A stretch of 41,213 nucleotides of DNA from a virus. Its lineage: Duplodnaviria; Heunggongvirae; Uroviricota; Caudoviricetes. Positions 1,331 through 41,213 of the stretch are shown piece after piece. The position numbers and the translations under genes are program-made. The stretch is from IMG/VR virus record IMGVR_UViG_2554235185_000012. One strand, given 5' to 3'. Below the pieces are notes generated by a model that worked only from the letters and a program-made list of their open reading frames with translations, was not told where the DNA came from and made no database searches. Positions within the stretch are counted from its first letter, which is position 1. Each line of letters starts with the position of its first letter.

Positions 1331-1345
1331 GCTTTTTTATACTAA
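1331..1345. repeat. attL: attL core (GCTTTTTTATACTAA), followed by lambda P-prime arm sequence
   Basis: Exact 15-bp lambda core; downstream sequence matches the lambda attP P-prime arm up to the int stop. Confidence 0.9.
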
Positions 1346-1418: not shown

Positions 1419-2489
1419 TTATTTGATTTCAATTTTGTCCCACTCCCTGCCTCTGTCATCACGATACTGTGATGCCATGGTGTCCGACTTATGCCCGAGA
1501 AGATGTTGAGCAAACTTATCGCTTATCTGCTTCTCATAGAGTCTTGCAGACAAACTGCGCAACTCGTGAAAGGTAGGCGGATCCCCTTCGAAGGAAAGAC
1601 CTGATGCTTTTCGTGCGCGCATAAAATACCTTGATACTGTGCCGGATGAAAGCGGTTCGCGACGAGTAGATGCAATTATGGTTTCTCCGCCAAGAATCTC
1701 TTTGCATTTATCAAGTGTTTCCTTCATTGATATTCCGAGAGCATCAACATGCAATGCTGTTGGGATGGCAATTTTTACGCCTGTTTTGCTTTGCTCGACA
1801 TAAAGATATCCATCTACGATATCAGACCACTTCATTTCGCATAAATCACCAACTCGCTGCCCGGTAACAACAGCCAGTTCCATTGCAAGTCTAAGCCAAC
1901 ATGGTGATGATTCTGCTGCTTGATAAATTTTCAGGTATTCGTCAGCCGTAAGTCTTGACCTCCTTACCTCTGATTTTGCTGCGCGAGTGGCAGCGACCGG
2001 GTTTGTTGTTATATGGCCTTCAGCTATTGCCTCTCGGAATGCATCGCTCAGTGTTGATCTGATTAACTTGGCTGATGCCGCCTTGCCCTCGTCTATGTAT
2101 CCATTGAGCATTGCCGCAATTTCTTTTGTGGTGATGTCTTCAAGTGGAGCATCAGGCAGACCCCTCCTTATTGCTTTAATTTTGCTCATGTAATTTATGA
2201 GTGTCTTCTGCTTGATTCCTCTGCTGGCGAGTATTTTTTCGTAGCGATCAAGCCATGAATGTAACGTAACAGAATTATCACTGTTGATTCTCGCTGTCAG
2301 AGGCTTGTGTTTGTGTCCTGAAAATAACTCAATGTTTGCCTGTATTGCTTCAGTAATTGCTATCCTCCTGTCTCTGCCTAATCCAAACTCTTTACCCGTC
2401 CTTGGGTCCCTGTAGCAGTAATATCCATTGTTTCTTATATAAAGGTTAGAGGGTAAATCCCGGCGCTCATGACTTCGCCTTCTTCCCAT
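1419..2489 (-). CDS. int: Lambda-type integrase (tyrosine recombinase)
   Basis: 356 aa beginning MGRRRSHERRDLP, recognised as near-identical to lambda Int; adjacent to attL. Confidence 0.95.
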   Translation of the reverse strand: MGRRRSHERRDLPSNLYIRNNGYYCYRDPRTGKEFGLGRDRRIAITEAIQANIELFSGHKHKPLTARINSDNSVTLHSWLDRYEKILASRGIKQKTLINYMSKIKAIRRGLPDAPLEDITTKEIAAMLNGYIDEGKAASAKLIRSTLSDAFREAIAEGHITTNPVAATRAAKSEVRRSRLTADEYLKIYQAAESSPCWLRLAMELAVVTGQRVGDLCEMKWSDIVDGYLYVEQSKTGVKIAIPTALHVDALGISMKETLDKCKEILGGETIIASTRREPLSSGTVSRYFMRARKASGLSFEGDPPTFHELRSLSARLYEKQISDKFAQHLLGHKSDTMASQYRDDRGREWDKIEIK

Positions 2490-2685
2490 TTCTGATCCTC
2501 TTCAAAAGGCTACCTGTTACTGGTCGATTTAAGTCAACCTTTACCGCTGATTCGTGGAACAGATACTCTCTTCCATCCTTAACCGGAGGAGGGAATATCC
2601 TGCATTCGCGCACCCATCGACGAACTGTTTCAAGGCTTCTTGGGCGTCGCTGGCGTGCGTTCCACTCCTGAAGTGTCAAGTACAT
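2467..2685 (-). CDS. xis: Excisionase Xis (72 aa)
   Basis: MYLTLQEWNARQRRPRSLETVRRWVRE matches lambda Xis; 3-prime end overlaps the int start as in lambda; the longer ORF in the track is an upstream extension. Confidence 0.9.
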   Translation of the reverse strand: MYLTLQEWNARQRRPRSLETVRRWVRECRIFPPPVKDGREYLFHESAVKVDLNRPVTGSLLKRIRNGKKAKS

Positions 2686-2799
2686 CGCAAAGTCTCCGCA
2701 ATTACACGCAAGAAAAAGCCGCATTGATGCGGCGATGGTAGGTCTGGATATCATTGAGCAATGAACAGGCCTCATCGAGTGTGAGGCTGTATGGCTCCA

Positions 2800-24429: not shown

Positions 24430-24753
24430 ATGCTTCTGACAATGGAAGAGATTAAAGCCCAACTCCGGCTGGATGAGGATTTCGATGCTGATGACCGCCA
24501 TCTGCAACTGCTGGCCTGTGCGGCACAAAAGCGGACGGAAACGTATCTGAACCGGAAGCTCTATGCACCGGATGAAACCATTCCGGACAGCGATCCGGAC
24601 GGGCTGCACCTGCCGGATGATATTCGTCTGGGGATGCTGATGCTTATCAGCCATTTTTACGAAAACCGCTCGTCGGTTACGGAAGTGGAGAAACTCGACA
24701 TGCCGCAGAGTTTTGGCTGGCTTGTCGGCCCGTACAGGTACTTTCCGCAATGA
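24430..24753 (+). CDS. Head-tail connector (gp6-like)
   Basis: 107 aa; position and acidic character. Confidence 0.6.
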   Translation: MLLTMEEIKAQLRLDEDFDADDRHLQLLACAAQKRTETYLNRKLYAPDETIPDSDPDGLHLPDDIRLGMLMLISHFYENRSSVTEVEKLDMPQSFGWLVGPYRYFPQ

Positions 24754-25160
24754 AAATTCGTCAGGCGCAGACCAGCGCAACCTACATTCTGCCGGACCCC
24801 GGTGAACTGAATAAACGCGTCCTGATCCGCCAGCGGGTGGATATGCCCGCGGATAACTTTGGCGTGGAGCCTCAATACCCGGTTACGTTCCGGACATGGG
24901 CGAAGGTTATCCAGACCAGTGCCACCACCTGGCAGGAAACCGCGCAGACCGGGGACGCCATCACCCATTACATCACCATTCGTTACCGCCGGGGGATCAC
25001 TGCTGATTATGAGGTGGTCTGTGATGACAGTGTGTACCGGGTGAAACGTCAGCGTGATCTGAACGGGGCGCGGCGCTTTCTGCTGCTGGAGTGTACGGAG
25101 CTGGGCGAATGTAGGCAGAGTCACGGAGGCAGCAATGGCGACTCCCTTTTTTCACGTTGA
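24750..25160 (+). CDS. Head-tail adaptor / head closure protein
   Basis: Order in head-completion module; start overlaps upstream stop. Confidence 0.55.
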   Translation: MKIRQAQTSATYILPDPGELNKRVLIRQRVDMPADNFGVEPQYPVTFRTWAKVIQTSATTWQETAQTGDAITHYITIRYRRGITADYEVVCDDSVYRVKRQRDLNGARRFLLLECTELGECRQSHGGSNGDSLFSR

Positions 25161-25641
25161 TGTTCAGCAGCCCGCCGAGATGCGCTTTAACCGCGCCCGT
25201 GTCCGGAGGGCGTTTGTCACGATTGGGCAGCGTCATATGCGTGATGCCCGTCGGCTGGTGATGCGCCGTGCGCGGTCGGCACCGGGTGAAAACCCCGGTT
25301 ATCAGACCGGACGCCTGGCTCGTTCGATTGGTTATATGGTGCCGAGAGCCAGTAAAAAGCGAGCCGGTTTTATGACACGCATTGCACCTAACCAGCGCAA
25401 CGGGAAGGGGAACCGGATGATCTCTGGTGACTTCTATCCGGCGTTTCTGTTTTTTGGTGTCCGGGGAGGAGCAAAACGTCGTCGTAGTCATCATCGTGGT
25501 GCATCCGGTGGCAGCGGCTGGCGACTGGCTCCACGTAATAACTTCATGGTGGAAACTCTTGAAAAGAACCGCAGCTGGACACGCTATTTTCTGGCGCGGG
25601 AATTGCGTAAATCACTGAAGCCGGAGAGACGACACAGATGA
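25135..25641 (+). CDS. HK97 gp10-like neck/tail-completion protein
   Basis: Basic 168-aa protein in neck module. Confidence 0.5.
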   Translation: MATPFFHVDVQQPAEMRFNRARVRRAFVTIGQRHMRDARRLVMRRARSAPGENPGYQTGRLARSIGYMVPRASKKRAGFMTRIAPNQRNGKGNRMISGDFYPAFLFFGVRGGAKRRRSHHRGASGGSGWRLAPRNNFMVETLEKNRSWTRYFLARELRKSLKPERRHR

Positions 25642-26198
25642 AACTGACGCCTGTTATTGCTGCGCTGCGTGCCCGCTGCCCGTATTTTGAAAACCGGGTG
25701 GCAGGCGCGGCACAGTTCAAAAATCTGCCGGAGGTCGGAAAGCTGAGACTCCCGGCGGCGTATGTGGTACCGGGTGATGACTCTCCGGGAGAAAACAAAA
25801 GCCAGACCGACTACTGGCAGGAGCTGAAAGAGGGCTTCTCCGTGGTTGTCATACTGAGTAACGGGCGTGATGAGCGCGGTCAGTTTGCCTCGTATGATGT
25901 GGTGGACGATGTCCGGCAGATGCTCTTTAAGGCCCTGCTGGGCTGGAACCCGGAAGCGTGCGGTAACCCGATTACCTATGACGGCGGCACGCTGCTGGAT
26001 CTGAATCGTCATGAGCTGATTTATCAGTTCGATTTTTCGGTCATCAGCGAGCTGACTGAAGACGATACCCGCCAGCAGGATGATCTGAACAGTCTGGATG
26101 AACTGCAAACGCTGGCGATTGATGTTGATTATCTCGAGCCCGGTAACGGGCCTGACGGCGATATCGAACATCACACCGAAATAACCCTTCCTTCCTGA
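25638..26198 (+). CDS. Mu gp37-like tail terminator-type protein
   Basis: Position immediately before the sheath module. Confidence 0.45.
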   Translation: MKLTPVIAALRARCPYFENRVAGAAQFKNLPEVGKLRLPAAYVVPGDDSPGENKSQTDYWQELKEGFSVVVILSNGRDERGQFASYDVVDDVRQMLFKALLGWNPEACGNPITYDGGTLLDLNRHELIYQFDFSVISELTEDDTRQQDDLNSLDELQTLAIDVDYLEPGNGPDGDIEHHTEITLPS

Positions 26199-26206
26199 GA
26201 ATCTTC

Positions 26207-26377
26207 ATGTTTGTGAAACCTGTTAAAGGGCGGTCAGTGCCTGACCCTGCCCGCGGTGACCTTTTGCCCGTCGAAGGGCGAAATGTTGACGAGAACAACT
26301 ACTGGCTGCGCCGTGAAGCAGCGGGTGATATCCGGCGCGTGAATAAAAAGGTGAACACCGATGACGATAAGCTTTAA
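26207..26377 (+). CDS. Small conserved protein (56 aa, DUF2635-like) preceding the tail sheath; below the ORF-track length cutoff
   Basis: Read directly: ATG at 26207, stop TAA at 26375..26377, overlapping the sheath start. Confidence 0.45.
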   Translation: MFVKPVKGRSVPDPARGDLLPVEGRNVDENNYWLRREAAGDIRRVNKKVNTDDDKL

Positions 26378-27857
26378 CACCATTCCGTCGAATACGCTGG
26401 TTCCGCTGTTTTATGCGGAAATGGATAACCAGGCGGCGAATACTGCACAGGACAGCGGAGCATCGCTGCTGATTGGTCATGCCAATAACGGTGCAGAGAT
26501 TGTTGCCAACAGTCTGGTACTGATGTCGTCGGCAGACTATGCACGCCAGATTTGTGGTGCGGGAAGTCAGCTGGCGCGTATGGTCGAGGCTTATCGCCAG
26601 ACTGACCCGTTTGGCGAGCTGTATGTGATTGCCGTTCCTGAATCCACAGGCGCGGCGGCAACGGTTACGCTGACGGTGACCGGGGCGGCAACCGAAACCG
26701 GCACGGTGAATGTGTATGTGGGACGTACCCGCGTGCAGGCACCGGTGACTAACGGCGATAACGTCACGATGATTGTCAGCAGTATCCAGGATGCCATCAA
26801 TGCCGTTCCGACCCTGCCGTTTACGGCTTCATCTTCGGCAGGCGTGGTCACACTGACCGCGCGTCATAAGGGGCTTTGCGGGAATGAAATTCCTGTCAGC
26901 CTCAATTACTACGGCTTTGGTGGGGGCGAAGTGCTGCCAGCGGGCGTACAGATTGCCGTGGCGACGGGTACCGCCGGAACGGGTGCTCCGGTTCTCACCG
27001 GCGCGGTGGCTGCAATGGCGGATGAGCCGTTTGATTATATCGGCCTGCCGTTCAACGACACGGCCTCCGTTAACACGCTGGTGACCGAGATGAACGATAC
27101 CAGCGGTCGCTGGAGCTATGCGCGTCAGCTGTACGGTCATGTGTATACGGCAAAGATCGGCACGCTGTCAGAACTGGTGACCGCTGGTGACCAGTTTAAC
27201 CAGCAGCACATTACCCTGGCGGGGTACGAAAAAGAGACCCAGACGCCTGCCGACGAGCTGGCGGCAAGCCGTACCGCCCGCGCAGCGGTGTTTATCCGCA
27301 ACGATCCGGCACGTCCCACGCAGACCGGTGAGCTGGTGGGTATGCTGCCTGCGCCGAAGGGGAAACGGTTCACGATGACCGAGCAGCAGACCCTGTTGTC
27401 TCATGGCGTGGCAACGGCGTATGTCGAAAGCGGGGTGCTGCGCATTCAGCGTGATGTCACCACGTACAGGAAAAATTCTTACGGGGTTGCGGATAACAGC
27501 TACCTCGACAGCGAGACGCTGCATACCAGTGCGTATGTACTGCGCAAACTGAAATCCGTCATTACCAGTAAGTACGGGCGTCACAAGCTTGCCAGCGACG
27601 GTACCCGCTTTGGTCCCGGTCAGGCGATTGTCACCCCGGCGGTAATCAAAGGGGAACTGCTGGCAACCTACCGTCAGCTTGAGCGTGCGGGGATCGTGGA
27701 AAACTACGAACTGTTTAAGCAGTACCTGGTTGTGGAGCGTGATGCCAGCGATCCGAACCGCCTGAACACGCTGTTCCCGCCTGACTATGTTAACCAGTTG
27801 CGTGTTTTTGCCGTGGTTAACCAGTTCCGTCTTCAGTATTCAGAGGAGTCTGCATAA
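26361..27857 (+). CDS. Contractile tail sheath protein (Mu L-like)
   Basis: 498 aa followed by a ~118-aa tube gene, then chaperone-with-frameshift and tape measure: canonical contractile-tail order. Confidence 0.8.
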   Translation: MTISFNTIPSNTLVPLFYAEMDNQAANTAQDSGASLLIGHANNGAEIVANSLVLMSSADYARQICGAGSQLARMVEAYRQTDPFGELYVIAVPESTGAAATVTLTVTGAATETGTVNVYVGRTRVQAPVTNGDNVTMIVSSIQDAINAVPTLPFTASSSAGVVTLTARHKGLCGNEIPVSLNYYGFGGGEVLPAGVQIAVATGTAGTGAPVLTGAVAAMADEPFDYIGLPFNDTASVNTLVTEMNDTSGRWSYARQLYGHVYTAKIGTLSELVTAGDQFNQQHITLAGYEKETQTPADELAASRTARAAVFIRNDPARPTQTGELVGMLPAPKGKRFTMTEQQTLLSHGVATAYVESGVLRIQRDVTTYRKNSYGVADNSYLDSETLHTSAYVLRKLKSVITSKYGRHKLASDGTRFGPGQAIVTPAVIKGELLATYRQLERAGIVENYELFKQYLVVERDASDPNRLNTLFPPDYVNQLRVFAVVNQFRLQYSEESA

Positions 27858-28213
27858 TGGCCCGTATCGGGGGAACCTGTTATTTCAAAATTGACGGTCA
27901 GCAGCTATCGCTGACCGGCGGCATTGAGGTGCCCATGAACAGGACGGTCAATGATGACATCATCGGCCTGGACGGTTCAGTGGACCGCAAGGAAACTCAC
28001 CGTGCGCCTTATGTCAAAGGGACCTTCAAGGTGCCGAAGAATTTTCCGGTGAGCAAAATCACCTCGTCTGATGAGATGACCATCACTGCTGAGCTGGCGA
28101 ACGGTCAGGTCTATGTATTGTCGTCAGCCTGGCTGCACGGCGAAGCGAACCATAATGCCGAAGAAGGCACGGTTGATCTTGAGTTCCACGGTGAAGAAGG
28201 GGATTACCAGTAA
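27857..28213 (+). CDS. Tail tube protein
   Basis: 118 aa immediately after the sheath. Confidence 0.75.
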   Translation: MARIGGTCYFKIDGQQLSLTGGIEVPMNRTVNDDIIGLDGSVDRKETHRAPYVKGTFKVPKNFPVSKITSSDEMTITAELANGQVYVLSSAWLHGEANHNAEEGTVDLEFHGEEGDYQ

Positions 28214-28482
28214 TGAAAGAGCTTGAGTTAAAGAAACCGATTACCGCTCATGGCGAGACACTCTCCGTACTGGAGTTTGATGAGCCCACCGGGAAAGATG
28301 TCCGCGAGCTGGGGTATCCCTACCAGATGAATCAGGATGAGTCCGTCAGACTTCTGGCGCATGTTGTATCGAAATACATTGTGCGGCTGGCGAAAGTGCC
28401 GCAAAGCTCTGTCGACCAGATGTCTCCGGCAGACCTGAATGCAGCGGCGTGGCTTGTGGCTGGTTTTTTCCTCCAGGCCTGA
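28213..28482 (+). CDS. Tail assembly chaperone (frame 0 product)
   Basis: Between tube and tape measure; overlapping -1 frame ORF 28449..28637 linked through a slippery heptamer. Confidence 0.7.
   Translation: MKELELKKPITAHGETLSVLEFDEPTGKDVRELGYPYQMNQDESVRLLAHVVSKYIVRLAKVPQSSVDQMSPADLNAAAWLVAGFFLQA
28464..28470 (+). other. Programmed -1 ribosomal frameshift slippery site T_TTT_TTC, giving a chaperone fusion extending to 28637
   Basis: Heptamer in the X_XXY_YYZ register of the chaperone frame; downstream -1 frame open to 28637. Confidence 0.65.
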
Positions 28483-28623
28483 CGGCTGAATACCTCACTG
28501 ATCGCTTCTTTGACTGCGCCAGCTACTGGCGCATTAATCCCTTCGAATTGCTGAATATGCCGATCAGTGAAATTCCCTTGCTGGTCAGTCAGGCAAACAG
28601 GATAGAGCAGGAGAAACGCGCAC

Positions 28624-30456
28624 ATGGCGGAATTTGAGCTTAAGGCGTTGATCACCGGTGTCGACAGGCTTTCTCCCGCGCTGTCGAAAATGCAAAAGAA
28701 AATCCGGGGATTTAAACGCCAGGCGGAAGAAGCGTCACAGGGTGGGCTGGCGCTTGGAGGCGGACTGGCAGCGGGTCTGACGCTTTCCCTGAAATCTTAT
28801 GCCGATCAGGAAAACGCCGCCACCGGGCTGAAAGTCGCCATGATGGATGCGAACGGCGAGGTTGGAAAGAGCTTTCAGGACATCAATAAACTGGCTATTG
28901 GCCTGGGTAATCAGCTACCCGGTACAACGGCTGATTTCCAGAACATGATGCAGATGCTGGTGCGTCAGGGGATCCCGGCAGAAAACATTCTTGGCGGTGT
29001 GGGTAAAGCGACAGCTTATCTTGCGGTACAACTGAAAAAAACACCGGAAGCGGCTGCCGAGTTTGCCGCAAAGATGCAGGATGCTACCGGAACGGCGTCA
29101 AAAGACATGATGGGGCTGTTCGACACTATCCAGAAGGCGTTTTATCTGGGCGTTGACGATACCAACATGTTGTCCTTCTTCACTAAAACCAGCTCTGTTC
29201 TGAAGATGGTGAACAAGGACGGTCTTCAGGCTGCACAGAGCCTTGCCCCCATCAGCGTCATGATGGATCAGATGGGGATGAACGGGGAGTCGGCAGGTAA
29301 CGCCCTGCGAAAAGTTATCCAGTCCGGATTAAGCGTTAAGAAAATCAGGGACGTCAATAAAATCATGGCCCGCCAGAAACTCGGGGTACAGCTCGATTTT
29401 ACTGACGGCAAAGGGAGTTTTGGCGGTCTTGATAACATGTTCAGGCAACTGGCAAAGCTGCGAAAACTGACCGACGTTAAGCGAACAGGCGTACTTAAGG
29501 CAATATTTGGTGATGATGCCGAAACCCTTCAGGTGGTCAATGCACTAATCGATAAAGGAAAGGATGGCTACGATCAGATCCAGCAGAAGATGAATAAACA
29601 GGCCAGCCTGAATAAACGTGTTCAGGCTCAGCTTGGTACGCTGTCCAACCTGTGGGAGGCAATGACGGGGACCGCAACTAACGGTCTTGCAGCTATTGGC
29701 GGCGCATTTTCTGGTGACGCCAAAAATATCACGCAGTGGCTGGGGGAGTTGGGGGAGAAATTCACGAAGTTTGCGGATGAAAATCCCCGGGTTATTCGCG
29801 GCGTCGTCGGGCTTGCTGCCGGTCTTGCGATTCTGAAACTGGGATTGATGGGCGTTGGCGGTGCCATCAGTATTGTCAGCAGGATCATGTCGATGACGCC
29901 GATTGGCATGATTGCGACGGCGATAGCCCTGGCTGCGGGATTAATTATCACTAACTGGGATGTTGTCGGACCTTATTTTAAGAAACTCTGGGAAACCATT
30001 GGTCCTTATTTTGAGGCTGGCTGGGAACTCCTTAAGAAAGTTTTTGCCTGGTCGCCGCTGGGGATGGTGATCAATAACTGGGGACCGGTTGTTAAGTGGT
30101 TTCAGGATATGTGGGACAAGCTGAAGCCAATTATTGAGTGGTTTACCGACAGTTCCGGTGACACGGTCGATGCCATTAACTCTGCGCAGTGGGGCGCGGG
30201 TGCTTATGATGCTTATGGGACGGGAATACCGGCGCGGGGATACACACCTTATCCGGCGGTGGATCCGGCTCAGTCAAACAACGCCTCCGATGCCACAGGC
30301 CCGAATCCCTTCATGATTAACAAAGCTTCTGCGCCAAAAGTTGATGGCGAGATCAAGGTTTCATTTATGAATATGCCACCAGGTATGCGGGTTACGGAAA
30401 CACGTTCCAGTGGCATTGATATTAATCACGATGTTGGGTACACCAGATTTAGGTAA
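28624..30456 (+). CDS. Tail tape measure protein
   Basis: 610 aa, Ala/Gly-rich helical with hydrophobic central segments; follows the chaperone pair. Confidence 0.85.
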   Translation: MAEFELKALITGVDRLSPALSKMQKKIRGFKRQAEEASQGGLALGGGLAAGLTLSLKSYADQENAATGLKVAMMDANGEVGKSFQDINKLAIGLGNQLPGTTADFQNMMQMLVRQGIPAENILGGVGKATAYLAVQLKKTPEAAAEFAAKMQDATGTASKDMMGLFDTIQKAFYLGVDDTNMLSFFTKTSSVLKMVNKDGLQAAQSLAPISVMMDQMGMNGESAGNALRKVIQSGLSVKKIRDVNKIMARQKLGVQLDFTDGKGSFGGLDNMFRQLAKLRKLTDVKRTGVLKAIFGDDAETLQVVNALIDKGKDGYDQIQQKMNKQASLNKRVQAQLGTLSNLWEAMTGTATNGLAAIGGAFSGDAKNITQWLGELGEKFTKFADENPRVIRGVVGLAAGLAILKLGLMGVGGAISIVSRIMSMTPIGMIATAIALAAGLIITNWDVVGPYFKKLWETIGPYFEAGWELLKKVFAWSPLGMVINNWGPVVKWFQDMWDKLKPIIEWFTDSSGDTVDAINSAQWGAGAYDAYGTGIPARGYTPYPAVDPAQSNNASDATGPNPFMINKASAPKVDGEIKVSFMNMPPGMRVTETRSSGIDINHDVGYTRFR

Positions 30457-30490
30457 AGACGAACAGGGAGGGCCGCCCTCCCTGAACTTA

Positions 30491-30898
30491 CTGTGCGAAC
30501 ACGCAATTTCGGCCTGATGGGGAGCCGACAATTCTGGACATTTTTCCGCAAATAACAGTTACTTGTTCTCCTTTTTTAAGAGCAGCAGCTGTTGATTTTT
30601 CAGAGTCTTGCATCTCCATTCTTGCTGGCATGAATTCATTTTCAGTTCTGAATTTAATAATTATAGAGTCAGTAAAGTCCTTATCAATGGATTGTACGAT
30701 ACCTCTAACGGCGATTAATTTACCTTTTAACTGTTCATCGGTAGCGACTTCATTTTCTTCATACTCTTTAAACAGCTGTCGAGCAGTAGTGTTGTAGATT
30801 TCTTTTTGCGGTGCCGCAGCTTCCGTATCGGATGAGTATGAAGAATTAGAGCCTTTATCGTTACCAGTAAATATTACTACTGATAATAAATATGGGAC
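30491..30898 (-). pseudogene. Start-less protein-like antisense ORF (~136 codons); probable 5-prime-truncated moron remnant or gene with non-canonical start
   Basis: Translated codon by codon: open from stop at 30899..30901 to stop at 30488..30490, first ATG only at 30629..30631; reads protein-like; AT-rich insert between GC-rich tail genes. Confidence 0.4.
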
Positions 30899-30902
30899 TT
30901 AT

Positions 30903-32228
30903 ATGACGTGGAAAGACAGACTTCAGGACGCGTCATTTCGCGGCGTGCCGTTTAAGGTTGAAGAAGAAAGTGCGGGAACCGGTCGCCGTGTGGAAACACA
31001 TGAATACCCGAACCGCGACAAACCCTATACCGAAGACCTGGGGAAAATCACTTTTCGCCCGTCCATCACGGCTTATGTGGTGGGAGATGACTGCTTTGAC
31101 CAGCGCGATCGCCTGATTGACGCGCTGAATAAACCCGGTCCCGGCACGCTTGTCCATCCGACATACGGTGAGCTGAAAGTCTGTGTTGACGGAGAAGTTC
31201 GGGTCAGCACATCGAAGAGTGAAGGGCGTATTGTCCGCTTTGACCTGAAGTTTGTCGAAGCGGGAGAACTCTCTTACCCCACTTCAGGTGCGGCGACGGC
31301 GCAGACGCTGATGTCATCCTGTTCTGCACTGGATGACTGCATCAGTGACAGCTTCAGAGGTTTCAGTATCGATGGCGTGGCGGATTTCGTGCAGAACGAC
31401 GTCGTCGGTAATGTCAGCACAATGCTTGGGTATGTTTCTGATGCGATGAAAGTGGTGGATTCTGCCGTATCGGATGCTGCCAGGCTGTTGCAGGGGGATA
31501 TCTCGGTACTTCTGCCGCCACCATCGTCAGGCAAAAATCTCGTTGAGCAGGTGCAGAAAATGTGGCGTACCGGGAAACGCCTTTATGGTAACGCCAGCGA
31601 CCTGGTCACCATGATCAAAACGCTTTCCGGTGTCAGCCTCGGCAGCGATCTGCAACCGCGCGGCGTCTGGAAAACGGACAGTAAAACCACCGCCACGGCT
31701 ACGCAGCAGCGTAACGTGGTTGCCAGCACCCTTCGTACGACCGCAATCAGCGAAGCGGCGTATGCCGTCACCCGATTGCCTGCGCCAACAACTTCCGCGG
31801 TGATGCAGAATGCCGCAGTGGGGCAGGCAACAACACCTGCGCAGAGCACTGGCTGGCCTTCCGTCACGCATCCGGCACTGAACAATGCACCGACGGTGAA
31901 AAACACAGTTGACCTGCCGACGTGGGAAGAACTGACTGACATTCGCGACACACTGAATACGGCAATTGATAAGGAGTTGTCCCGTACAACCAGTGATGCG
32001 CTGTTTCTGGCGCTGCGCCGGGTGAAAGCAGATCTGAATGCGGATATCAACACGCGCCTTGAACAGTCTGCACGGATCATTCAGCGCACGCCGGATGAGG
32101 TTTTACCCGCGCTGGTGCTGGCGGCGACCTGGTTTGATAACGCGGCGCGTGACGCGGACATTATCCGGCGTAATGCCATTACGCATCCCGGATTTGTGCC
32201 GGTGATCCCTCTGAAGGTGCCAGTGTAA
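30903..32228 (+). CDS. DNA circularization protein (Mu N-like)
   Basis: 441 aa directly downstream of the tape measure region. Confidence 0.65.
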   Translation: MTWKDRLQDASFRGVPFKVEEESAGTGRRVETHEYPNRDKPYTEDLGKITFRPSITAYVVGDDCFDQRDRLIDALNKPGPGTLVHPTYGELKVCVDGEVRVSTSKSEGRIVRFDLKFVEAGELSYPTSGAATAQTLMSSCSALDDCISDSFRGFSIDGVADFVQNDVVGNVSTMLGYVSDAMKVVDSAVSDAARLLQGDISVLLPPPSSGKNLVEQVQKMWRTGKRLYGNASDLVTMIKTLSGVSLGSDLQPRGVWKTDSKTTATATQQRNVVASTLRTTAISEAAYAVTRLPAPTTSAVMQNAAVGQATTPAQSTGWPSVTHPALNNAPTVKNTVDLPTWEELTDIRDTLNTAIDKELSRTTSDALFLALRRVKADLNADINTRLEQSARIIQRTPDEVLPALVLAATWFDNAARDADIIRRNAITHPGFVPVIPLKVPV

Positions 32229-33307
32229 TGAACGATAACGTCACGCTACGGGTAAATGGCCGGGAGTGGAATGGCTGGACATCGGTGCGCATCGGTGCCG
32301 GTGTTGAACGACTGGCGCGGGATTTCAGTGTGGAGATCACTCGCCAGTGGCCGGGAGATGAGGGTATCACCACGCTTCAGCCGCGCATTAAAAACGGTTC
32401 AAAAGTGGAAGTGCTGATTGGTGATGAGCTGGTGATCACCGGCTGGGTGGAGGCGACTCCCGTTCGTTACGATGCCCGTTCGGTCAGCACCGGTATTGCC
32501 GGACGTAGTCTGACGGCTGACCTGATTGACTGTGCAGCCGAACCGACACAGTTTAACGGACGCTCGCTGGTGCAGATTGCGCAGGCGCTTGCTGCGCCTT
32601 TCGGCATTGAGGTGGTGAACAGCGGTGCGCCGTCGGGTGTTATTCCTGATGTTCAGCCTGATCACGGTGAAACGGTGATTGAGGTAATCAACAAAATACT
32701 CGGTCAGCAGCAGGCGCTGGCTTATGACGACCCGCACGGCAGGCTGGTGATTGGTGGTATTGGCTCAACGCGGGCACATACCGCGCTGGTACTCGGGGAA
32801 AACATCCTTTCCTGCGATACGGAGAAGAGTATCCGGGAGCGGTTTTCTGTTTACCAGGTGGCGGGGCAGCGTGCCGGAAACGACGATGATTTCGGTGAGG
32901 CCACCACCACCGCGCTGCGGGCCCGCACAGAGGACGCATTTATTGCCCGTTACCGTCCGATGTATATCAGGCAGACAGGACAGGCTACGGGGGCTGGCTG
33001 TATTGCCCGTGCGGACTTTGAAGCCCGACAACGGGCGGCGCGGACGGATGAAACCACCTATGTGGTGCAGGGCTGGCGACAGGGTAACGGTACGCTGTGG
33101 CAGCCCAACCAGCGGGTGATTGTCTTTGATCCGGTCTGTGGTTTCGACAACACCGAACTGCTTGTTTCGGAAGTCACGTTTACTCAGGACCAGAACGGCA
33201 CCCTGACGGAAATCCGTGTCGGCCCACCAGATGCTTATCTGCCTGAACCCGAAGCCCCCGGCGCGCGGAAAAAGAAAAAAGCCAGAGTACAGGAGGACCC
33301 GTTCTGA
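32228..33307 (+). CDS. Baseplate hub / tail protein (Mu P-like)
   Basis: Position and size in Mu-type baseplate module. Confidence 0.6.
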   Translation: MNDNVTLRVNGREWNGWTSVRIGAGVERLARDFSVEITRQWPGDEGITTLQPRIKNGSKVEVLIGDELVITGWVEATPVRYDARSVSTGIAGRSLTADLIDCAAEPTQFNGRSLVQIAQALAAPFGIEVVNSGAPSGVIPDVQPDHGETVIEVINKILGQQQALAYDDPHGRLVIGGIGSTRAHTALVLGENILSCDTEKSIRERFSVYQVAGQRAGNDDDFGEATTTALRARTEDAFIARYRPMYIRQTGQATGAGCIARADFEARQRAARTDETTYVVQGWRQGNGTLWQPNQRVIVFDPVCGFDNTELLVSEVTFTQDQNGTLTEIRVGPPDAYLPEPEAPGARKKKKARVQEDPF

Positions 33308-33855
33308 TGAGGACGATTGAAGCCATGCAGCGACAACTCCTCGGCCTGATTGGGCGGGCCGTGGTGAAAAGCATCAGTGCCGCCACGAAATGTCAGACCG
33401 TGGATGTGTCCCTGATTGCCGGTGAACCCAAAGCCGGGGTTGAACATCTTGAACCCTACGGTTTTACTGCAAGGGCAAACAGTGGTGCGGAAGCGGTGGT
33501 GTTGTTTCCGGATGGCGACCGTTCTCATGCGGTGGTTGTTACGGTGTCGGACCGTCGCTACCGCCTGAAAGGGCTGCAGACGGGGGAGGTGGCTGTCTAT
33601 GACGATCAGGGGCAGTCCGTGACGCTGACCCGGGAGGGGATTGTGGTGGACGGTGCAGGTAAAACGATCACGTTTCGCAATGCACCTGAAGCACGTTTTG
33701 AAATGGACCTGGAAGTGACAGGACAGGTGAAAGACCTGTGCGACTCCGGCGGCACCACCATGTCAGCGATGCGGCTTGCCTATAACGGGCATCGTCACAG
33801 AGAGAACGGTCAGGGCAGTAACACCGACAAACCTGATAAATCGATGGAGGCATGA
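33307..33855 (+). CDS. Baseplate assembly protein V-like (spike)
   Basis: Position in Mu-type baseplate module. Confidence 0.55.
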   Translation: MRTIEAMQRQLLGLIGRAVVKSISAATKCQTVDVSLIAGEPKAGVEHLEPYGFTARANSGAEAVVLFPDGDRSHAVVVTVSDRRYRLKGLQTGEVAVYDDQGQSVTLTREGIVVDGAGKTITFRNAPEARFEMDLEVTGQVKDLCDSGGTTMSAMRLAYNGHRHRENGQGSNTDKPDKSMEA

Positions 33856-34280
33856 TGGAACTGTGGCTGACGGTGAACGGTAAACGCACCTGCGCCAGCG
33901 CACCGCTGGATCCGCTGACCCGCGCCGTGGTGATTTCCCTGTTTACCTGGCGGCGGGCGGAGCCTGATGACAATGCCGACGTCCCGATGGGATGGTGGGG
34001 GGATACCTGGCCTGAGGTACAGAATGACCGTTACGGCTCCCGACTGTGGCTGCTTCAGCGCAGCAAACTGACCAATCAACTGGTGCAGACGGTAAGGGGG
34101 TATATCCGCGAATGCCTGCAATGGATGATTGATGACGGCGTGGTGTCCCGTATTGATCTGGATATCCGCCGCACCGGGATTAATGAACTGGGTAACAGTA
34201 TCACTCTCTGGCGTCGTGACGGACCGGTAATGATTTCTTTTGATGATCTGTGGAGTGCGATAACGCATGGCGGACAGTGA
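33852..34280 (+). CDS. Mu gp46-like baseplate protein
   Basis: Order and size in baseplate module. Confidence 0.55.
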   Translation: MMELWLTVNGKRTCASAPLDPLTRAVVISLFTWRRAEPDDNADVPMGWWGDTWPEVQNDRYGSRLWLLQRSKLTNQLVQTVRGYIRECLQWMIDDGVVSRIDLDIRRTGINELGNSITLWRRDGPVMISFDDLWSAITHGGQ

Positions 34281-35325
34281 ATTTCAGCGCCCGACGCTGG
34301 CAGAAAATATCAGTATGCTCCGTAACGATTTATTCGCCAGGCTGGACGTCAGCGACACGCTCCGGCGCATGGATGAAGACGTGCGGGCAAAGGTGTATGC
34401 GGCGGCGCTGCATACGGTTTACGGGTACATCGATTATCTGGCAATGAACATGCTGCCTGACCTGTGCGATGAGTCCTGGCTGGCGCGACATGCTGCGATG
34501 AAACGGTGTCCGCGCAAGGGGGCCACGGCTGCCAGCGGGTATATGCGCTGGGAAGGTGTCAGCGATGGCCTGAAGGTGACCGCCGGAAGTGTTATTCAGC
34601 GCGATGACCTGGTTCAGTACACGGCAACTGCCGATGCAACCAGCACCGGTGGTGTCCTGCGCGTGCCGATCGCCTGCTCAAGTGCAGGCGCGGTCGGTAA
34701 CGCTGACGACGGTACGTCATTAATCCTGGTCACGCCGGTTAATGGTCTGCCGTCTTCCGGCGAGGCAGATACCCTGACAGGTGGATTTGATACTGAAGAG
34801 CTGGAAACGTGGCGCGCCCGCGTCATTGAGCGGTATTACTGGACGCCTCAGGGCGGGGCTGACGGGGACTATGTCGTCTGGGCTAAAGAAGTGCCCGGCA
34901 TTACCCGCGCATGGACATACCGACACTGGATGGGAACGGGGACTGTCGGTGTGATGATTGCCAGCAGTGACCTGATTAACCCCATTCCGGAAGAATCAAC
35001 GGAAACGGCGGCAAGACAACATATCGAGCCACTGGCCCCGGTGGCAGGCTCTGATTTGTATGTATTCAGGCCGGTGGCGCACAAAGTGGATTTTCATATC
35101 CGCGTGACGCCGGACACACCGGAAATACGGGCTGCCATCACCGCGGAGTTGCGTTCATTCCTGCTGCGTGATGGTTATCCGCAGGGAGAGCTTAAGGTAT
35201 CGCGTATCAGTGAAGCGATTTCCGGTGCGAACGGGGAATACAGCCATCAGTTGCTTGCTCCGGCGGACAATATCTCCATTGCAAAAAATGAACTGGCGGT
35301 TCTGGGGACGATTTCATGGACGTGA
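34267..35325 (+). CDS. Baseplate J-like protein (Mu gp47-like)
   Basis: 352 aa; order in baseplate module. Confidence 0.6.
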
Positions 35326-35900
35326 CAAACGATGATTACATCCGTCTGTTGTCGGCACTGTTGCCCCCTGGTCCGGCGTGGTCAGCCAGCGATCCGGCGA
35401 TTGCCGGTGCGGCACAGTCATTAACCCGTGCTCATCAGCGTGCGGATGCCCTGATGCGGGAGCTGGATCCGCGCACCACCACCGAACTGATAAACCGCTG
35501 GGAGCGTCTGTGCGGCCTGCCGGATGAATGTATTCCGGCAGGGACGCAGACCCTTCGCCAGCGTCAGCAACGGCTGGATGCGAAGGTTAACCTGGCGGGT
35601 GGCATCAATGAGGATTTTTACCTTGCGCAGCTTGCTGCCCTGGGCAGACCAGATGCCACCATCACGCGATACGACAAAAGCACGTTCACCTGCTCATCGG
35701 CCTGTACTGACGCGGTGAATGCGCCGGAATGGCGGTATTACTGGCAGGTCAATATGCCAGCTGCCACCAACACCACCTGGATGACATGTGGCGATCCCTG
35801 TGATTCCGCACTGCGTATCTGGGGGGACACCGTTGTCGAGTGCGTGCTTAACAAACTCTGCCCGTCGCATACCTACGTAATTTTTAAATATCCGGAGTAA
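35316..35900 (+). CDS. Mu gp48-like (YmfQ/DUF2313-type) tail protein
   Basis: Order, immediately before tail fiber. Confidence 0.55.
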
Positions 35901-35903
35901 TTC

Positions 35904-36836
35904 ATGCATCGTATAGACACGAAAACCGCGCAGAAGGATAAGTTCGGCGCGGGTAAGAACGGTTTTACCCGTGGTAACCCCCAGACCGGCACGCCTGCCA
36001 CCGATCTGGATGATGACTACTTTGACATGTTGCAGGAGGAGCTTTGCAGCGTGGTGGAGGCATCCGGTGCCAGCCTGGAGAAGGGGCGGCATGACCAGTT
36101 GCTTACAGCGCTTCGTGAGCTGCTGTTAAGCCGCAAGAATCCGTTTGGCGATATCAAATCGGATGGCACGGTGAAAACGGCTCTCGAAAACCTTGGTTTG
36201 GGAGATGGCTCGGGGCGTTACAGCAAAACTGTCGTTTTTTCATCGTCGGGTTCATATACGTGGCCAGCTGACGTAAAACGAATTGACGTTATTCTGACTG
36301 CGGCGGGCGGCGGTGGCGGTGGATGTAACGCGGAGAACGCAAATCAGACATTTTCAGGGGCTGGCGGAGGAGCCGGAGGTACTGTTTTTGCCACTATTTA
36401 TGCGACAGACAACGATGCCGGGCCAGGAACCTATACAGTGACAATTGGCAGCGGTGGTAGTGGTGCCAATGGGGCAGGGTCTGGAAATAATGGCGGTAAT
36501 AGTTCGTTCATGACATTAACTGCGCTCGGCGGCCAGGGTGGGCAATGGGGCGGCGCTACAAATACCGCTGGCGGGCGCGGTGGCTCAGGTTCTGGCGGTT
36601 ATAAAACTGAACAAGGCGGAGACGGTTCAGACGGACAGGCGGGCCAGGCGCTATTAGTAGGCAATGGGGCATCGAGCTATTGGGGTGGCGGCGGCCGCGC
36701 TGGGCAACTGAGCGGTAATCCTGGAGTTTGCTCTGGCTCCGGCGGCGGGGGTGCATACGATAATAGCTATTCACACACGTCAGGACGTGGCGGGCACGGA
36801 GCTAATGGCGTGCTGGTAATTCGGGAGTACATGTAA
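35904..36836 (+). CDS. Tail fiber protein with conserved N-terminus and glycine-rich C-terminal domain
   Basis: N-terminus [26 protein letters not shown] typical of side tail fibers; C-terminal GGxGG-rich segment; followed by tfa. Confidence 0.75.
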
Positions 36837-37241
36837 ATGAATGATGTCTATGCAGTTGTTGATAATAACGTTGTTATTAATGTCATTATCTGGGACGGAA
36901 TTTCTGAATGGAAACCAGAGGCTGGTAATTTAGTTCCGTTAAACGGCGATGCTGGCATCGGTTGGTCATATTCAGACGGAGTATTTACCGCGCCACCTCC
37001 CCCAGAACGCTCTCACAACGCGTTAGTTGCGGAGGCTGAGCTGCAGAAATCAGCACTACTGACCGTAGCAAATAACGCAATAGCACCGCTGCAGGATGCC
37101 GTTGATTTGGAAATGGCGACAGACGATGAACAGACGTTACTGCTGGCGTGGAAAAAATACAGGGTACTGCTGAACCGTGTTGATACCTCAGCGGCACCCG
37201 AAATAGAGTGGCCTACGCAACCGGGGGAGCGGGCCAGTTGA
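36837..37241 (+). CDS. tfa: Tail fiber assembly protein (Tfa)
   Basis: C-terminus [33 protein letters not shown] typical of Tfa chaperones. Confidence 0.8.
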
Positions 37242-37470
37242 TATCAGGCGCAGCGTCAGCATCAACTGCTGTCACTGCGTCGATGTAGTCGAGTACCGCA
37301 TTCAGCCGCGTTTTTTCATCATCAGTCAGTTTGCGGCCTGCACTTCTCCGTTGGCATCTTTGTTATATGGTACAACTGCGCAGAGGCCTGTCTCTTCAAT
37401 TGTGCCAGTTGAATACTACGATACAACGCTCGGCCTTCCTGTTTGGTGGAACATAACCACATCCACATGG
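37213..37470 (-). pseudogene. Inverted, frameshifted remnant of a second tail fiber assembly gene
   Basis: Minus-strand translation gives [37 protein letters not shown] (Tfa C-terminus) ending at 37213, convergent with tfa; upstream Tfa-like text lies in another frame. Confidence 0.5.
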
Positions 37471-37539
37471 AAAAGAGCTGATGGTGCAGATGTATAATTC
37501 TGGTGCCGCGCATGCGGCACCAATAAAAAACATATTAAA

Positions 37540-39015
37540 CTAAAGTGAATCTATTCCATTTTTCCAAATAAGAACTTTTTTGTCTTGTATTTTATGAGTG
37601 CTATCAGGCTGCCCAAACTGTTTTATGGCCTTTTCCTCTTGCTCTACATCATCAGCAATTAAAAAATTAGCTCCTTTTTGGTACCATTCTTTTTTTGATA
37701 ACCAATTATATGGTGTGAATCTATCACCATACGACTCAAATGGAGCTACGTTGATATCACTAAATCCAGCAACAGATGATGCAAACCAAAATGATGCATA
37801 ACCTCTTTGTAGTTTATTTTTTATTAAGAAATCTCTTAATTCTATTGTAATATCATTTTTATTAACAATGTTTTTTGTTGTTGCCATCGTTGGCAACGAT
37901 AACGCAATAACGATTAATGATATTAGTAAATTTGTCTTCACTGGTAAGGAGAAAGAATTTCTAGCAATCACAATTGACATGAAAATAAACGTTGGGACTA
38001 TGTATCTAATTGAGAAAAGATTTGTTGGCCTGTCACTTGAAACATAGGCAATCAACATGACTAATGATGATACAATAAGAACCTGGTCAATAAAATCAAT
38101 TTCTTTAAATTTAAGAATGTTTTTATAAGATAAAAATAAGAATACAAAAATGAAAAACACCTTTATCATGGTGAATAATGAGTTAAAGCTACCTATCTCC
38201 ATTCCAAACGCGTACCCACCAAAAAATTTGAATACGCCCATGATAACAAGAGATATGTTGCTTGTTATTTGTTGAAACTCTACTATGTGAGGTTTGGTTA
38301 TGCCTGGCAGGTTAAATCCACCAAGCTTAATGAATATAAATGATATGAGCTCAGCAATAAATATAGATGATATAGTGAAAACCAACAATAACAAATCATT
38401 AGTATTCAACGAATCTCTTTTCATTAGAGAAGCATACATTCTATATATGCAAACAAAAACTATAGGTATTATAAAGGCATATTTAGATATATCATCACTA
38501 AAAACAAGCAACGATAACATAAATACATATGGAAAAAGTAATTTTAAATCATTTTTCTTTCTGTATCTATCTATTATTAGTATGATCGCCAGCATGTAAA
38601 TGTACGCACCAATATGTATACATGCTATAAGCATTATACTTGATGAGAAAACCGTTGGAATTCCAAATACAGAAAGAACAGGCCATAACGATGCCCTGCT
38701 TTTAGTATGAGAGATATATAGCGATAGTGTTACTAACATAGACATGAAAATTCCAGGCACAATATAGTACAGATTTTCATTAAATCCTATTATTTTTATC
38801 GCTATAGCATATGGTATTATTTCTGTGAAATAGAATGATACAGTTGATAAATCCCACCCACTGAGAAAAATATTTCCTTCAGTAATATCCCTTGCCTCTC
38901 TGAATGAAGACATGACATCTGAGTTTGGAATTATGTTTTTAGCAATCATTGAGTAAATTATTGATAATACAATAAATGTTGCCAGCCAATATAAAAGCTC
39001 AAGCTTCTTGCTCAT
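37540..39015 (-). CDS. Serotype-specific O-antigen glucosyltransferase (GtrC-type polytopic membrane protein)
   Basis: 491 aa, many TM segments, very AT-rich; directly downstream of gtrB and gtrA. Confidence 0.7.
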
Positions 39016-39929
39016 TTTTTACCCTTAAGTACATACTTTGGACGCTGCTTAACTTCAATGTAAATTCTACCAATATACTCACCGAGCACTCCAATCCCAA
39101 TTAACTGGATGCCGCCAAGAAATAATATTGATACAAGAATTGAAGGGTATCCAGGTACATTATTATCAAAAATTAATTTATCAATTATCATCCATGAACC
39201 GTATGTAAATGATATACATGCAATAAATAACCCAATATAGGTCCACATGCGAAGCGGGAATGTTGAGAAGCTAGTGATCCCTTCCAGCGCCAAGTTCCAT
39301 AGCTTCCATCCATTGAACTTTGTGCTTCCTGCAACGCGTTCTGCTCGCGCATATTCTACGACATCGGTTCGACCACCAACCCAGCTCAGCACACCCTTCA
39401 TAAACAGGTTTCGTTCTGGCATGAGCTTAATGTTTTCTACTACTTCGCGAGACATGAGCCGGAAGTCGCCAACATTCTCTTCTATCTGAGGGTTGCTGAT
39501 TTTGTTATGAAGTTTATAGAACCACTCAGCAGATTTACGCTTCAGCCTGCTGTCAGTGGAGCGGTCAGAGCGTTTAGCCAGAACCATATCTGCACCGGCC
39601 TGCCATTTCTCTATCAAGTGAGGAATAACTTCGATAGGGTCTTGCAGATCAACGTCAATCGGGATAATTGCCTCCCCGGTAGCATGGTCCAGACCTGCGA
39701 ACAGGGCGGGTTCTTTGCCGAAGTTACGTGTGAACGACAGCGAAACAACAAGCGGGTCGGCAACAGCAAGCTCGTTGATAATTGATTCTGTAGCGTCTTT
39801 GCTGCCATCGTTTATGAAGACTATCTCGACTTCATGCTGCTGAAGCCCTTCAAATTCGCGCACAGTTTTATAAAAAATAGGTATCGTGGCCTCTTCGTTA
39901 AAGACCGGAACGACTAAAGAAATTTTCAT
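39012..39929 (-). CDS. gtrB: Bactoprenol glucosyltransferase GtrB (GT2 family)
   Basis: N-terminal GT2 domain ([17 protein letters not shown]) and two C-terminal TM segments. Confidence 0.85.
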
Positions 39930-40288
39930 TTCGCATCCCTAAAGACAATGAACTTTGAATAGACGAAACCGCACACCAGGCTGATGGCGGAGAAGGTGAC
40001 AAGAGTTATCATCGGGGGAAGTGCGCATCTATCAGCAGCCCATCCAACAGTAGCACTGAGTGTTCCCATGAACCCGACATATAACATGTAGCGCATCGTT
40101 GTAGTTGATGCTTTGAATGTGAATTTTGCATTCGCGAAGAAGCTAAAACTCACAGCCACAACGAAACCTGCGAAGTTTGCCAGAGCCTGATTGGTATGCG
40201 CGGCATAGATACATACACCAAAAACCACCCAGTGTATAAGTGTGTTCAGCACACCAATCGAGGTGTACCTTGCAAATATATTTAACAT
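39926..40288 (-). CDS. gtrA: GtrA flippase-like small membrane protein
   Basis: 120 aa, four hydrophobic segments; overlaps the gtrB start. Confidence 0.8.
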
Positions 40289-40450
40289 TTATTTAATCAA
40301 TGAGTTCTGAAAGGTATGAAGTCTATCATCCAAGTCTCAATCGATCGATACTTGCGGTAGTTGATGAGGAAAACTCTGGTACACAAAGCTTTGCACTGGA
40401 CTGCAAGGTGTTGTGCTTCTCTGGAGTGCGATATGTTTGATGACAAAAAA

Positions 40451-40485
40451 TTAGCGCAAGAGGACAAAAAATCACCTTGCGCTAA
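40451..40485 (-). terminator. Inverted repeat TTAGCGCAAG-N15-CTTGCGCTAA with T-run on the minus strand (insulator upstream of the gtr promoter region)
   Basis: Perfect 10-bp inverted repeat; minus-strand reading places TTTTTTGTC after the hairpin. Confidence 0.35.
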
Positions 40486-40631
40486 TGCTCTGTCTCAGGT
40501 CACTAATACCATCTAAGTAGTTGATTCATAGTGACTGGATATGTTGTGTTTTGTAGTATCATGCAGTCTATTTTTTAGACTAAATGTATTTTAACACATT
40601 GATATTATTGGCTTTTGCTGTTTTGCGTTCA

Positions 40632-40646
40632 GCTTTTTTATACTAA
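40632..40646. repeat. attR: attR core (GCTTTTTTATACTAA), preceded by a lambda-like P arm and followed by host B-prime
   Basis: Exact core; downstream CTTGAGCGAAACGGGAAGG is the host side of attB lambda. Confidence 0.9.
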
Positions 40647-40736
40647 CTTGAGCGAAACGGGAAGGTAAAAAGACAAAAAGTTGTTTTTAATACCTTTAAG
40701 TGATACCAGATGGCATAGCGCCATCTGGCAGAGTGA

Positions 40737-41213
40737 TTAACTAAACATCGCAGTAATCGAGGCGCTTGCCAGAGAATGGAAATGGACGTTAAACCCGACC
40801 ATCGCGCCGCTGGCACCTTCATCGACATCAATACGTTCTACATCCAGCGCGTGAACGGTAAAAATGTAGCGATGGGTTTCGCCTTTCGGCGGCGCTGCAC
40901 CATCGTACCCGGTTTTACCAAAGTCGGTACGCGTCTGCAAAACGCCGTCTGGCATTGCTACCAGACCAGAGCCAAACCCTTGCGGTAATACGCGGGTATC
41001 AGCGGGTAAATTAACAACTACCCAGTGCCACCAGCCGGAGCCGGTTGGCGCATCCGGGTCGTAGCAGGTGACAACAAAACTTTTCGTTCCCGCAGGAACA
41101 TCATCCCACGCCAGATGCGGTGAAACATTATCGCCATCGTAACCCATGCCGTTAAAGACATGACGATGTGGCAACTTATCGCCATCGCGCAGATCATTAC
41201 TGATGAGTTTCAT
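40737..41213 (-). CDS. ybhB: Host YbhB, PEBP-family protein; complete
   Basis: 158 aa beginning MKLISNDL, recognised as E. coli YbhB, the gene flanking attB lambda on the bio side. Confidence 0.85.
   Translation of the reverse strand: MKLISNDLRDGDKLPHRHVFNGMGYDGDNVSPHLAWDDVPAGTKSFVVTCYDPDAPTGSGWWHWVVVNLPADTRVLPQGFGSGLVAMPDGVLQTRTDFGKTGYDGAAPPKGETHRYIFTVHALDVERIDVDEGASGAMVGFNVHFHSLASASITAMFS

Follow-up and report, generated by a model that had tools for sequence, protein, structure and literature searches.

A gtrA–gtrB–gtrC cassette of a prophage at the lambda attachment site: a putative O44 conversion locus with a third protein outside the GtrII family

The window considered here (the whole stretch of DNA analysed, 41,213 nucleotides) contains a gtrA–gtrB–gtrC cassette. 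With a probability of roughly 0.8, this is the cargo by which a myovirus prophage of the SfII/SfV type converts its lysogen; the prophage has a lambda int–xis–attP module and occupies attB lambda, flanked by ybhC and ybhB, and the cassette adds the glucose side branch of the O44 antigen. We infer, or take from the literature, that the sugar is glucose, which position of the O-unit accepts it, and that the cassette confers the O44 phenotype; the acceptor is assigned because gtrC co-occurs with the O77-group backbone and because the literature points to the same structure. In the proposed mechanism, GtrB would transfer glucose from UDP-glucose to undecaprenyl phosphate at the cytoplasmic face of the membrane, and GtrA would carry the lipid-bound sugar over to the periplasmic side. 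There, the third protein, for which a GT-C fold is predicted, would add this glucose at a single site of the Man-Man-Man-GlcNAc O-unit specified by the O17/O44/O73/O77/O106 cluster. According to the literature, the outcome would be the conversion of an unbranched O77-type antigen to O44. Cassettes of the gtr type that modify the O-antigen exclude O-antigen-dependent phages, and the one studied here may do likewise.

The locus itself has been described before. The cassette together with its flanks is 99.4% identical, over 3.76 kb, to E. coli 042 (O44:H18), where the cassette occupies 914835..917583, and the identity to the strain PCP06238 is 100% over 37300-40740. In the genome paper on E. coli 042, published in 2010, a prophage named 042p1/ROD15 was mapped to 877116..917926 and noted to have a 15-bp direct repeat, its cargo was given as “gtrAB and Ec042-0853” (914835..917583), one half of it was found to be lambda/P22-like and the other SfV-like, and an alteration of the serotype was predicted (PMC2808357). 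The prophage 042p1 and the window agree in the length of the interval (2749 bp), in the 15-bp direct repeats, in having ybhB at the flank, and in their SfV-like structural genes; they differ by strain-level SNPs only. Judging by this correspondence, the cassette is the cargo of 042p1 and the combination is not new; it can be regarded as ordinary since the same locus is already on record for strain 042. According to two later papers that cite Wang et al. 2007, O17, O44, O73, O77, and O106 have a gene cluster and a Man-Man-Man-GlcNAc backbone in common, and Wang et al. assigned the glucose branch of O44 to a prophage between ybhB and ybhC that carries gtrA, gtrB, and one further gene (PMC7685785, PMC10304059). 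As the locus, what it carries, and its likely contribution to O44 were reported in 2007 and 2010, the present data carry little weight as a discovery. What is added here is the absence of any Pfam or NCBIfam domain and of detectable similarity to Shigella GtrII-type enzymes in the third protein, the gtrA–gtrB–third gene order in its relatives, the counts of carriers, the exchange of alleles in the gtrC slot, and the identity of a nearby inverted repeat with lambda tI/sib.

The three genes are arranged head-to-tail in a single minus-strand operon: gtrA (40288..39926, 120 aa), gtrB (39929..39012, 305 aa), and gtrC (39015..37540, 491 aa; Ec042-0853 in strain 042 and “WbbG” in PMC10304059), with the start and stop codons sharing 4 bp at each joint. 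A distance of 344 bp separates the start of gtrA from the attR core; the prophage-borne cassette adjoins the att site and, in the circular phage, would also lie close to int. The initial annotation had placed a gtrA-gtrB-gtrC cassette next to attR at 37540-40288, and these coordinates proved exact when compared with the open reading frames, the Pfam matches, and the att cores. Its description of the third gene as encoding a polytopic membrane protein of much lower GC content holds as well: the GC content is 0.308 (GC3 0.278) for gtrC, 0.455 for gtrA, 0.440 for gtrB, and 0.515 for the remaining prophage, and the structure model of the third protein has membrane-spanning helices within residues 3-378, with juxtamembrane helices in between.

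The identity of the first two proteins is straightforward. GtrA belongs to the GtrA/DPMS family of small membrane proteins: it matches PF04138 (E 2e-13) and phrog_2224, “GtrA-like O-antigen conversion” (E 2.7e-69). It is identical (100%) to GtrA of GN06156, a genome with a sister prophage at the same site, and 85.8% identical to GtrA of SfII. On the basis of its family, GtrA would be the flippase that moves undecaprenyl-phosphate-glucose across the inner membrane. GtrB matches PF00535 (E 2.8e-30), a family-2 glycosyltransferase domain, as well as phrog_841 (E 4e-165) and phrog_34335, both annotated as “GtrB”, with E about 1e-165; at 85.4% identity to GtrB of SfII, it falls close to the phage GtrB proteins, GT2 bactoprenol glucosyltransferases that, on family grounds, would convert UDP-glucose to undecaprenyl-phosphate-glucose. 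The conservation of GtrA and GtrB, asserted earlier without database searches, is thus borne out. By blastn, homology to SfII spans 39049 to 40408 and includes the 5′ region of gtrA (40289..40379, minus strand), which is common to the Shigella Sf phages and is the presumed site of the gtr promoter.

The third protein, on the contrary, falls outside the GtrII family (PF14264), since all sequence and profile comparisons with GtrII were negative. It has no Pfam match, PF14264 included, even at E≤10, in the same run in which GtrII of SfII and GtrC of GN06156 matched PF14264 with E 1.8e-30 and 1.1e-26, respectively. A search of NCBIfam returned no match either, BLASTP against these two proteins revealed no similarity (E>1), and a tblastn search of 50,697 phage records gave no match. 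Membership in PF14264 is ruled out by these negatives together with a profile–profile comparison (hhalign) in which a profile of 15 family members was aligned with GtrII. Comparison with typed Gtr enzymes had been proposed as a check on the GtrC assignment, and in this respect the expectation failed: the third protein has no homology to the Gtr enzymes of Shigella or P22, the hhalign probability for GtrII being 0.12%. Among the PHROGs, it matches just three families of unknown function over the C-terminal 100-200 residues; the BFVD search for viral structures yielded nothing useful (top TM-score 0.48), and PGAP labels the product as a hypothetical protein.

Dissimilarity of this kind is normal for GtrC families, which in Salmonella are less than 18% identical to one another (PMC3688519). 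The Salmonella gtr operons (P22 gtrABC, GtrC families I-X) follow the same three-gene logic, and their GtrC families show no sequence relationship to each other, each of them being tied to particular O-antigen backbones (PMC3688519, PMC2909390). The lack of similarity in Pfam, NCBIfam, GtrII, and phage tblastn searches, as well as the “hypothetical protein” label, might also be taken to mean that the third gene encodes an unrelated membrane protein (such as a Wzy-type polymerase, an acyltransferase, a transporter, or a ligase) whose position downstream of gtrAB is fortuitous. This is very unlikely because of the predicted fold and the gene context, which are considered below.

The structure model of the third protein (pLDDT 84.3) gave matches at high Z only to GT-C glycosyltransferases. 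Homology to a non-Gtr membrane protein, named in the initial annotation as the sign that would speak against a GtrC, did not emerge at the level of the fold: acyltransferase-3 and transporter matches were absent. An acyltransferase-type GtrC, as in Salmonella family II (acyltransferase-3), was considered and rejected, with no such domain or fold match found. Structural relatives include ArnT (PDB 5f15), the undecaprenyl-phosphate-L-Ara4N transferase, and the GT-C enzymes PglB, AglB, STT3, PMT, ALG, and AftB; the third protein is 7-12% identical to them, and homology to ArnT or the other GT-C enzymes is not detectable at the sequence level. It also differs from these comparators in the number of membrane helices (a presumable 11 versus 13) and in the acceptor, which would be the O-antigen here but is lipid A or protein for ArnT and the other GT-C enzymes.

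When the helices of the model are combined with the positive-inside rule, the third protein appears to have 11 membrane helices and a cytoplasmic N-terminus. Lysine and arginine account for 14/61 residues in the loops assigned to the cytoplasm versus 9/144 in the loops assigned to the periplasm. The family alignment contains 39 invariant columns, including S32-D33, D43, W54..T64, H134, S173-D174, and R337-Y338. According to the same model, every invariant residue would lie on the periplasmic side, along with the alpha/beta domain at the C-terminus (about 385-491), and candidate catalytic residues can be predicted from conservation combined with the model. The third protein is predicted to be a glycosyltransferase fit to use a periplasmic lipid-phosphate sugar.

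The family to which the third protein belongs is large. Eighteen relatives turned up in a word-indexed search, and a full profile search retrieved 4245 representatives at E≤1e-3 and 751 at E≤1e-30, mostly full-length (50% clustering). None of the 10 distant members checked has a Pfam domain, and neither a characterised member of the family nor a Pfam model for it was found. In all four relatives that were checked in their genomes, the gene order is gtrA–gtrB–homologue: in Salmonella serovar Carrau, where the locus adjoins proBA (31% identical), in a Citrobacter prophage, in a prophage with a beta-helix tailspike (62% identical), and in an E. coli prophage of the same kind (P0003), at the same ybhB site, which encodes a 40%-identical protein. 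Across these loci and both GtrC families, the GC content of the third gene is 0.31-0.35 versus 0.40-0.47 for gtrAB. The occupation of the gtrC slot by 4/4 checked homologues, and of the same slot in sister prophages by a bona fide PF14264 GtrC, argues against a membrane protein unconnected with gtrAB, as does the fold. The third gene is, therefore, best regarded as gtrC by its position, the predicted GT-C fold of the product, and its tie to one O-antigen backbone, on which the serotype-specific role originally ascribed to it stands. A definition of the family, along with the biochemical characterisation of one member, would improve the annotation of many genes now called “hypothetical protein”.

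The tie to the backbone follows from the distribution of gtrC alleles. By blastn, the window and GN06156 (L002) are 98.1% identical over 39012-40760 and 95.2% identical over 37001-37484, with no match between, which delimits an exchangeable module (37485..39011) comprising gtrC and 55 bp of its 3′ flank. In sister prophages at the same site, this slot is occupied by a PF14264 glucosyltransferase gene, that of GN06156 among them. The gtrC studied here was found in 11/5426 complete E. coli genomes (20,395 records searched), and the O17/O44/O73/O77/O106 wzy is present in 9/11 of the carriers; the O77-group wzx/wzy pair as such occurs in 93/5426 E. coli genomes. The co-occurrence of gtrC with the O77-group wzy gives a Fisher p = 5e-15, a value that is overstated because the strains are related by shared ancestry. 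The alternative PF14264 gtrC is present in 35 records, including the O17 reference strain K12a, and 33/35 have the same wzy; the two alleles never co-occur. Since sister prophages differ only in this slot, and both alleles track the same wzy and are never found together, the gtrC slot behaves, as far as its distribution tells, like an interchangeable serotype module that goes with a single O-antigen backbone.

It has to be considered whether the third gene, although present, modifies the O-antigen of its host at all: it might be silent, act on another acceptor (ECA, capsule, or protein), or transfer another sugar. Two carriers, ET650 and 300081, have no O77-group wzy, and in them the enzyme either uses a different acceptor or stays idle. 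Moreover, a consensus scan of 40289..40379 upstream of gtrA found no sigma-70 promoter, and Salmonella GtrC families II and IV left the O-antigen unchanged in gel assays (PMC3688519). Such inactivity toward the O-antigen is, nevertheless, improbable. The open reading frame is intact and at least 99.5% identical in 11/11 records and overlaps gtrB by 4 bp, and the other nine carriers possess the O77-group backbone. [quoted passage not shown] O44 conversion by the cassette thus remains the preferred reading.

A bolder proposal can be put forward only tentatively, at somewhat worse than even odds: that the third protein represents a large GT-C family without a Pfam model and that the allele in the gtrC slot of att-lambda prophages (the one described here, the PF14264 type, or neither) resolves O44 and O17 within “O77g”. 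Serogroups O17, O44, O73, O77, and O106 share a cluster and cannot be separated by wzx/wzy genoserotyping (PMC13188871), and recent outbreak work with wzx/wzy cannot split “O77g” (PMC13188871, PMC13248637). In a genome announcement from 2026, the serotypes are in-silico “O77g” calls only, which do not confirm O44 for the strain LP-26-E1-261. If the proposal is true, the allele would split serogroups that are lumped by current genome-based serotyping, including the lineage of the 2025 French STEC O77g:H18 outbreak. In practice, it would serve as an in-silico typing marker by which O44 and O17, at least, could be recognised.

The prophage that carries the cassette has an integration module of the lambda type. 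The 15-bp lambda core GCTTTTTTATACTAA occurs in exactly two copies in the window versus 0.05 expected by chance: as the attL core (1331..1345, plus strand), followed by the lambda P′ arm, and as the attR core (40632..40646, plus strand), both being exact. The int gene (1419..2489, minus strand) encodes a protein with 353/356 residues identical to lambda Int (99%). Overlapping its start is a 102-aa open reading frame (2467..2775) that contains a putative lambda-type xis of 72 aa (2467..2685, minus strand); the last 72 residues, beginning with MYLTLQEWNARQ, presumably match lambda Xis. The xis–int overlap is as in lambda. At the right end, homology to lambda starts at about 40380, and the segment 40380..40631, which aligns with lambda 27399-27799, corresponds to the sib region and the P arm of attP. 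Beyond the core lies the host gene ybhB (40737..41213, minus strand; PF01161, E 2e-42), which marks the bio side of attB lambda and runs past the end of the window; in the annotation of strain 042, ybhB is followed by bioA and bioB. With two cores, the P′ arm and Int on the left, sib and the P arm on the right, and host ybhB beyond, the element is, to judge from these features, a 39.3-kb prophage at attB lambda whose ybhB flank is identified here. The proposal of a lambda-type module at attB lambda is supported by the exact core at both ends and the near-identity of Int, as well as by both arms and the flanking gene.

In this module, the phage resembles lambda in Int, the cores, both arms of attP, and the tI/sib hairpin; beyond sib, lambda has its b-region and the present phage has gtrABC, and the tail genes are not lambda-like. 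Over 18546-36205, the genes for head, tail, and baseplate share 97-98% identity with their counterparts in SfII, SfI, SfIV, and SfV. This homology ends within the tail-fibre gene, whose C-terminus diverges from about 36205. The order int–attP–terminator–gtrA–gtrB–type-specific gene is the same in SfII, SfV, SfI, and SfIV, and in the circular form of the present phage it would read xis–int–attP–terminator–gtrA–gtrB–gtrC, as in SfII. The GC content of the type-specific third gene is also similar, 0.318 in the Sf phage versus 0.308 here. However, the Sf phage loci examined do not have the lambda int/att module, whereas int and att of the present phage are those of lambda. For integration, the Sf phages use the thrW tRNA gene as the site and an integrase of the P22 type.

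Between ybhB and gtrA, the lambda-derived segment contains a hairpin (40438..40497, minus strand) with the inner arms TTAGCGCAAG (40451-40460) and CTTGCGCTAA (40476-40485). Read on the minus strand, the structure 40451..40485 has an energy of -29.6 kcal/mol (z -6.9) and is directly followed by UUUUUU. The repeat is near base-for-base identical to lambda at about 27544-27577, within a continuous lambda block of about 250 bp; its U-run lies on the int-sense strand, and it is located about 150-190 bp from the core. We take this hairpin to be the lambda terminator tI, which doubles as the central part of sib, the RNase III site through which int expression is lowered. In the free phage, tI/sib ends or processes int transcripts. 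The consensus terminator scan missed tI because its loop exceeds 8 nt, and a search for Rfam families across the whole window returned none.

The initial annotation supposed that this inverted repeat may insulate the cassette from host read-through. The orientation is consistent with such an effect: given the minus-strand U-run 3′ of the stem, transcription reading through from ybhB would stop before gtrA, and it is plausible that the tI hairpin between the two genes could act in this way, the termination itself being judged from the sequence. The part of the idea that does not stand is the link to gtr, as the repeat is lambda tI/sib and not specific for the cassette. The strong minus-strand hairpin with its U6 tract, situated between ybhB and gtrA, could be thought to have arisen specifically to insulate or regulate the gtr operon, but this is an unlikely origin for a sequence that matches lambda nearly base for base inside a block running into the P arm and the core, and that is found as the same hairpin in lambda, where gtr genes are absent. 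Any insulation by tI would rather be a by-product of the integration geometry, because the hairpin was inherited along with the lambda att module.

As to the control of the operon, phase-variable gtr promoters of the P22 type, which depend on Dam and OxyR, have four GATC sites, in two pairs, that fall within OxyR half-sites ahead of gtrA (PMC2909390). In the interval 40289-40740, GATC occurs once, at 40343. This signature of the P22-type gtr operons is thus absent here, and Dam/OxyR phase variation was rejected on this ground; since four sites are needed and one is present, expression of the cassette is probably not switched in the manner of P22. At the other end of the operon, a GC-rich hairpin with a 10-bp stem (37500..37523, minus strand; -20.6 kcal/mol, z -4.2) starts 17 nt past the gtrC stop codon, and in spite of the weak U-run downstream of it, it is a candidate for the operon terminator.

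The gtrA-gtrB-gtrC cassette is not confined to one kind of phage. In E. coli ET650 (NZ_CP100936), a P2-like prophage houses the same cassette, with a tail-fibre assembly gene on one side and a tail sheath gene on the other; this copy (L014, 4596-8210) is the equivalent of window 37080-40694. The ET650 segment comprises the 3′ end of tfa, gtrCBA, lambda tI/sib together with the P arm, and the attR core, and it also includes about 48 bp of host DNA from the ybhB side. It looks as if it was derived from the attR junction of a lysogen. Another copy resides in a lambda-like siphovirus prophage of E. coli 300081 (NZ_CM128587), where the equivalent of window 37101-40408 (L015, 4614-7922) lies behind gpJ, lom, stf, and two remnants of tfa and is followed by genes for an AAA ATPase and an S8 peptidase. 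The homology between the window and the 300081 prophage stops at 40408, which is the same endpoint as that of the homology with the Shigella serotype-converting phage SfII. Neither ET650 nor 300081 possesses the wzy of the O17/O44/O73/O77/O106 O-antigen cluster (O77-group wzy).

In all three phage backbones, the cassette is accompanied by what remains of a second, inverted tail-fibre assembly gene, annotated as a remnant by PGAP in E. coli 042. In the window, this remnant is located between tfa and gtrC on the minus strand (approximately 37213-37340) and lacks the N-terminus. It may represent the homology exploited for the cassette transfer. The nearby tail-fibre gene (35904-36836) is one ORF encoding 310 aa, whereas in 042 PGAP describes an ‘stfP’ pseudogene and a separate ORF. 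Similarity of this gene to the Sf phages stops at about 36205, and a glycine-rich domain (PF21722) makes up the C-terminal two-thirds of its product.

Within the cassette, the slot at window 37485-39011 is occupied by different gtrC alleles. In E. coli GN06156 (L002, 3244-4731), the window’s gtrC is replaced by a gene for a PF14264 GtrC. This replacement GtrC is present in 35 E. coli records, all but two of which (33/35) bear the O77-group wzy, and the O17 reference strain K12a is among the carriers; the protein is probably the O17-specific glucosyltransferase. A third allele, P0003, fills this slot at the same ybhB site in E. coli GCA_043310855 (L009, 2800-7904), with a gene for an IS200-type Y1 transposase downstream. 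P0003 belongs to the same family as the window’s GtrC and is 40% identical to it, and the nucleotide match with the window continues into gtrC for about 220 bp from its 5′ end (38792-39015). P0003 may be a mosaic.

Shortly past the gtrC stop codon, within the exchangeable module, there is a perfect 10-bp GC-rich hairpin (37500-37523), which on the gtr strand is preceded by a U-run and followed by a merely weak one. On the host side of attR, the palindrome CCAGATGGCATAGCGCCATCTGG (40706-40728) is situated a short way downstream of the ybhB stop codon and, judging by its sequence, is likely the terminator hairpin of ybhB itself.
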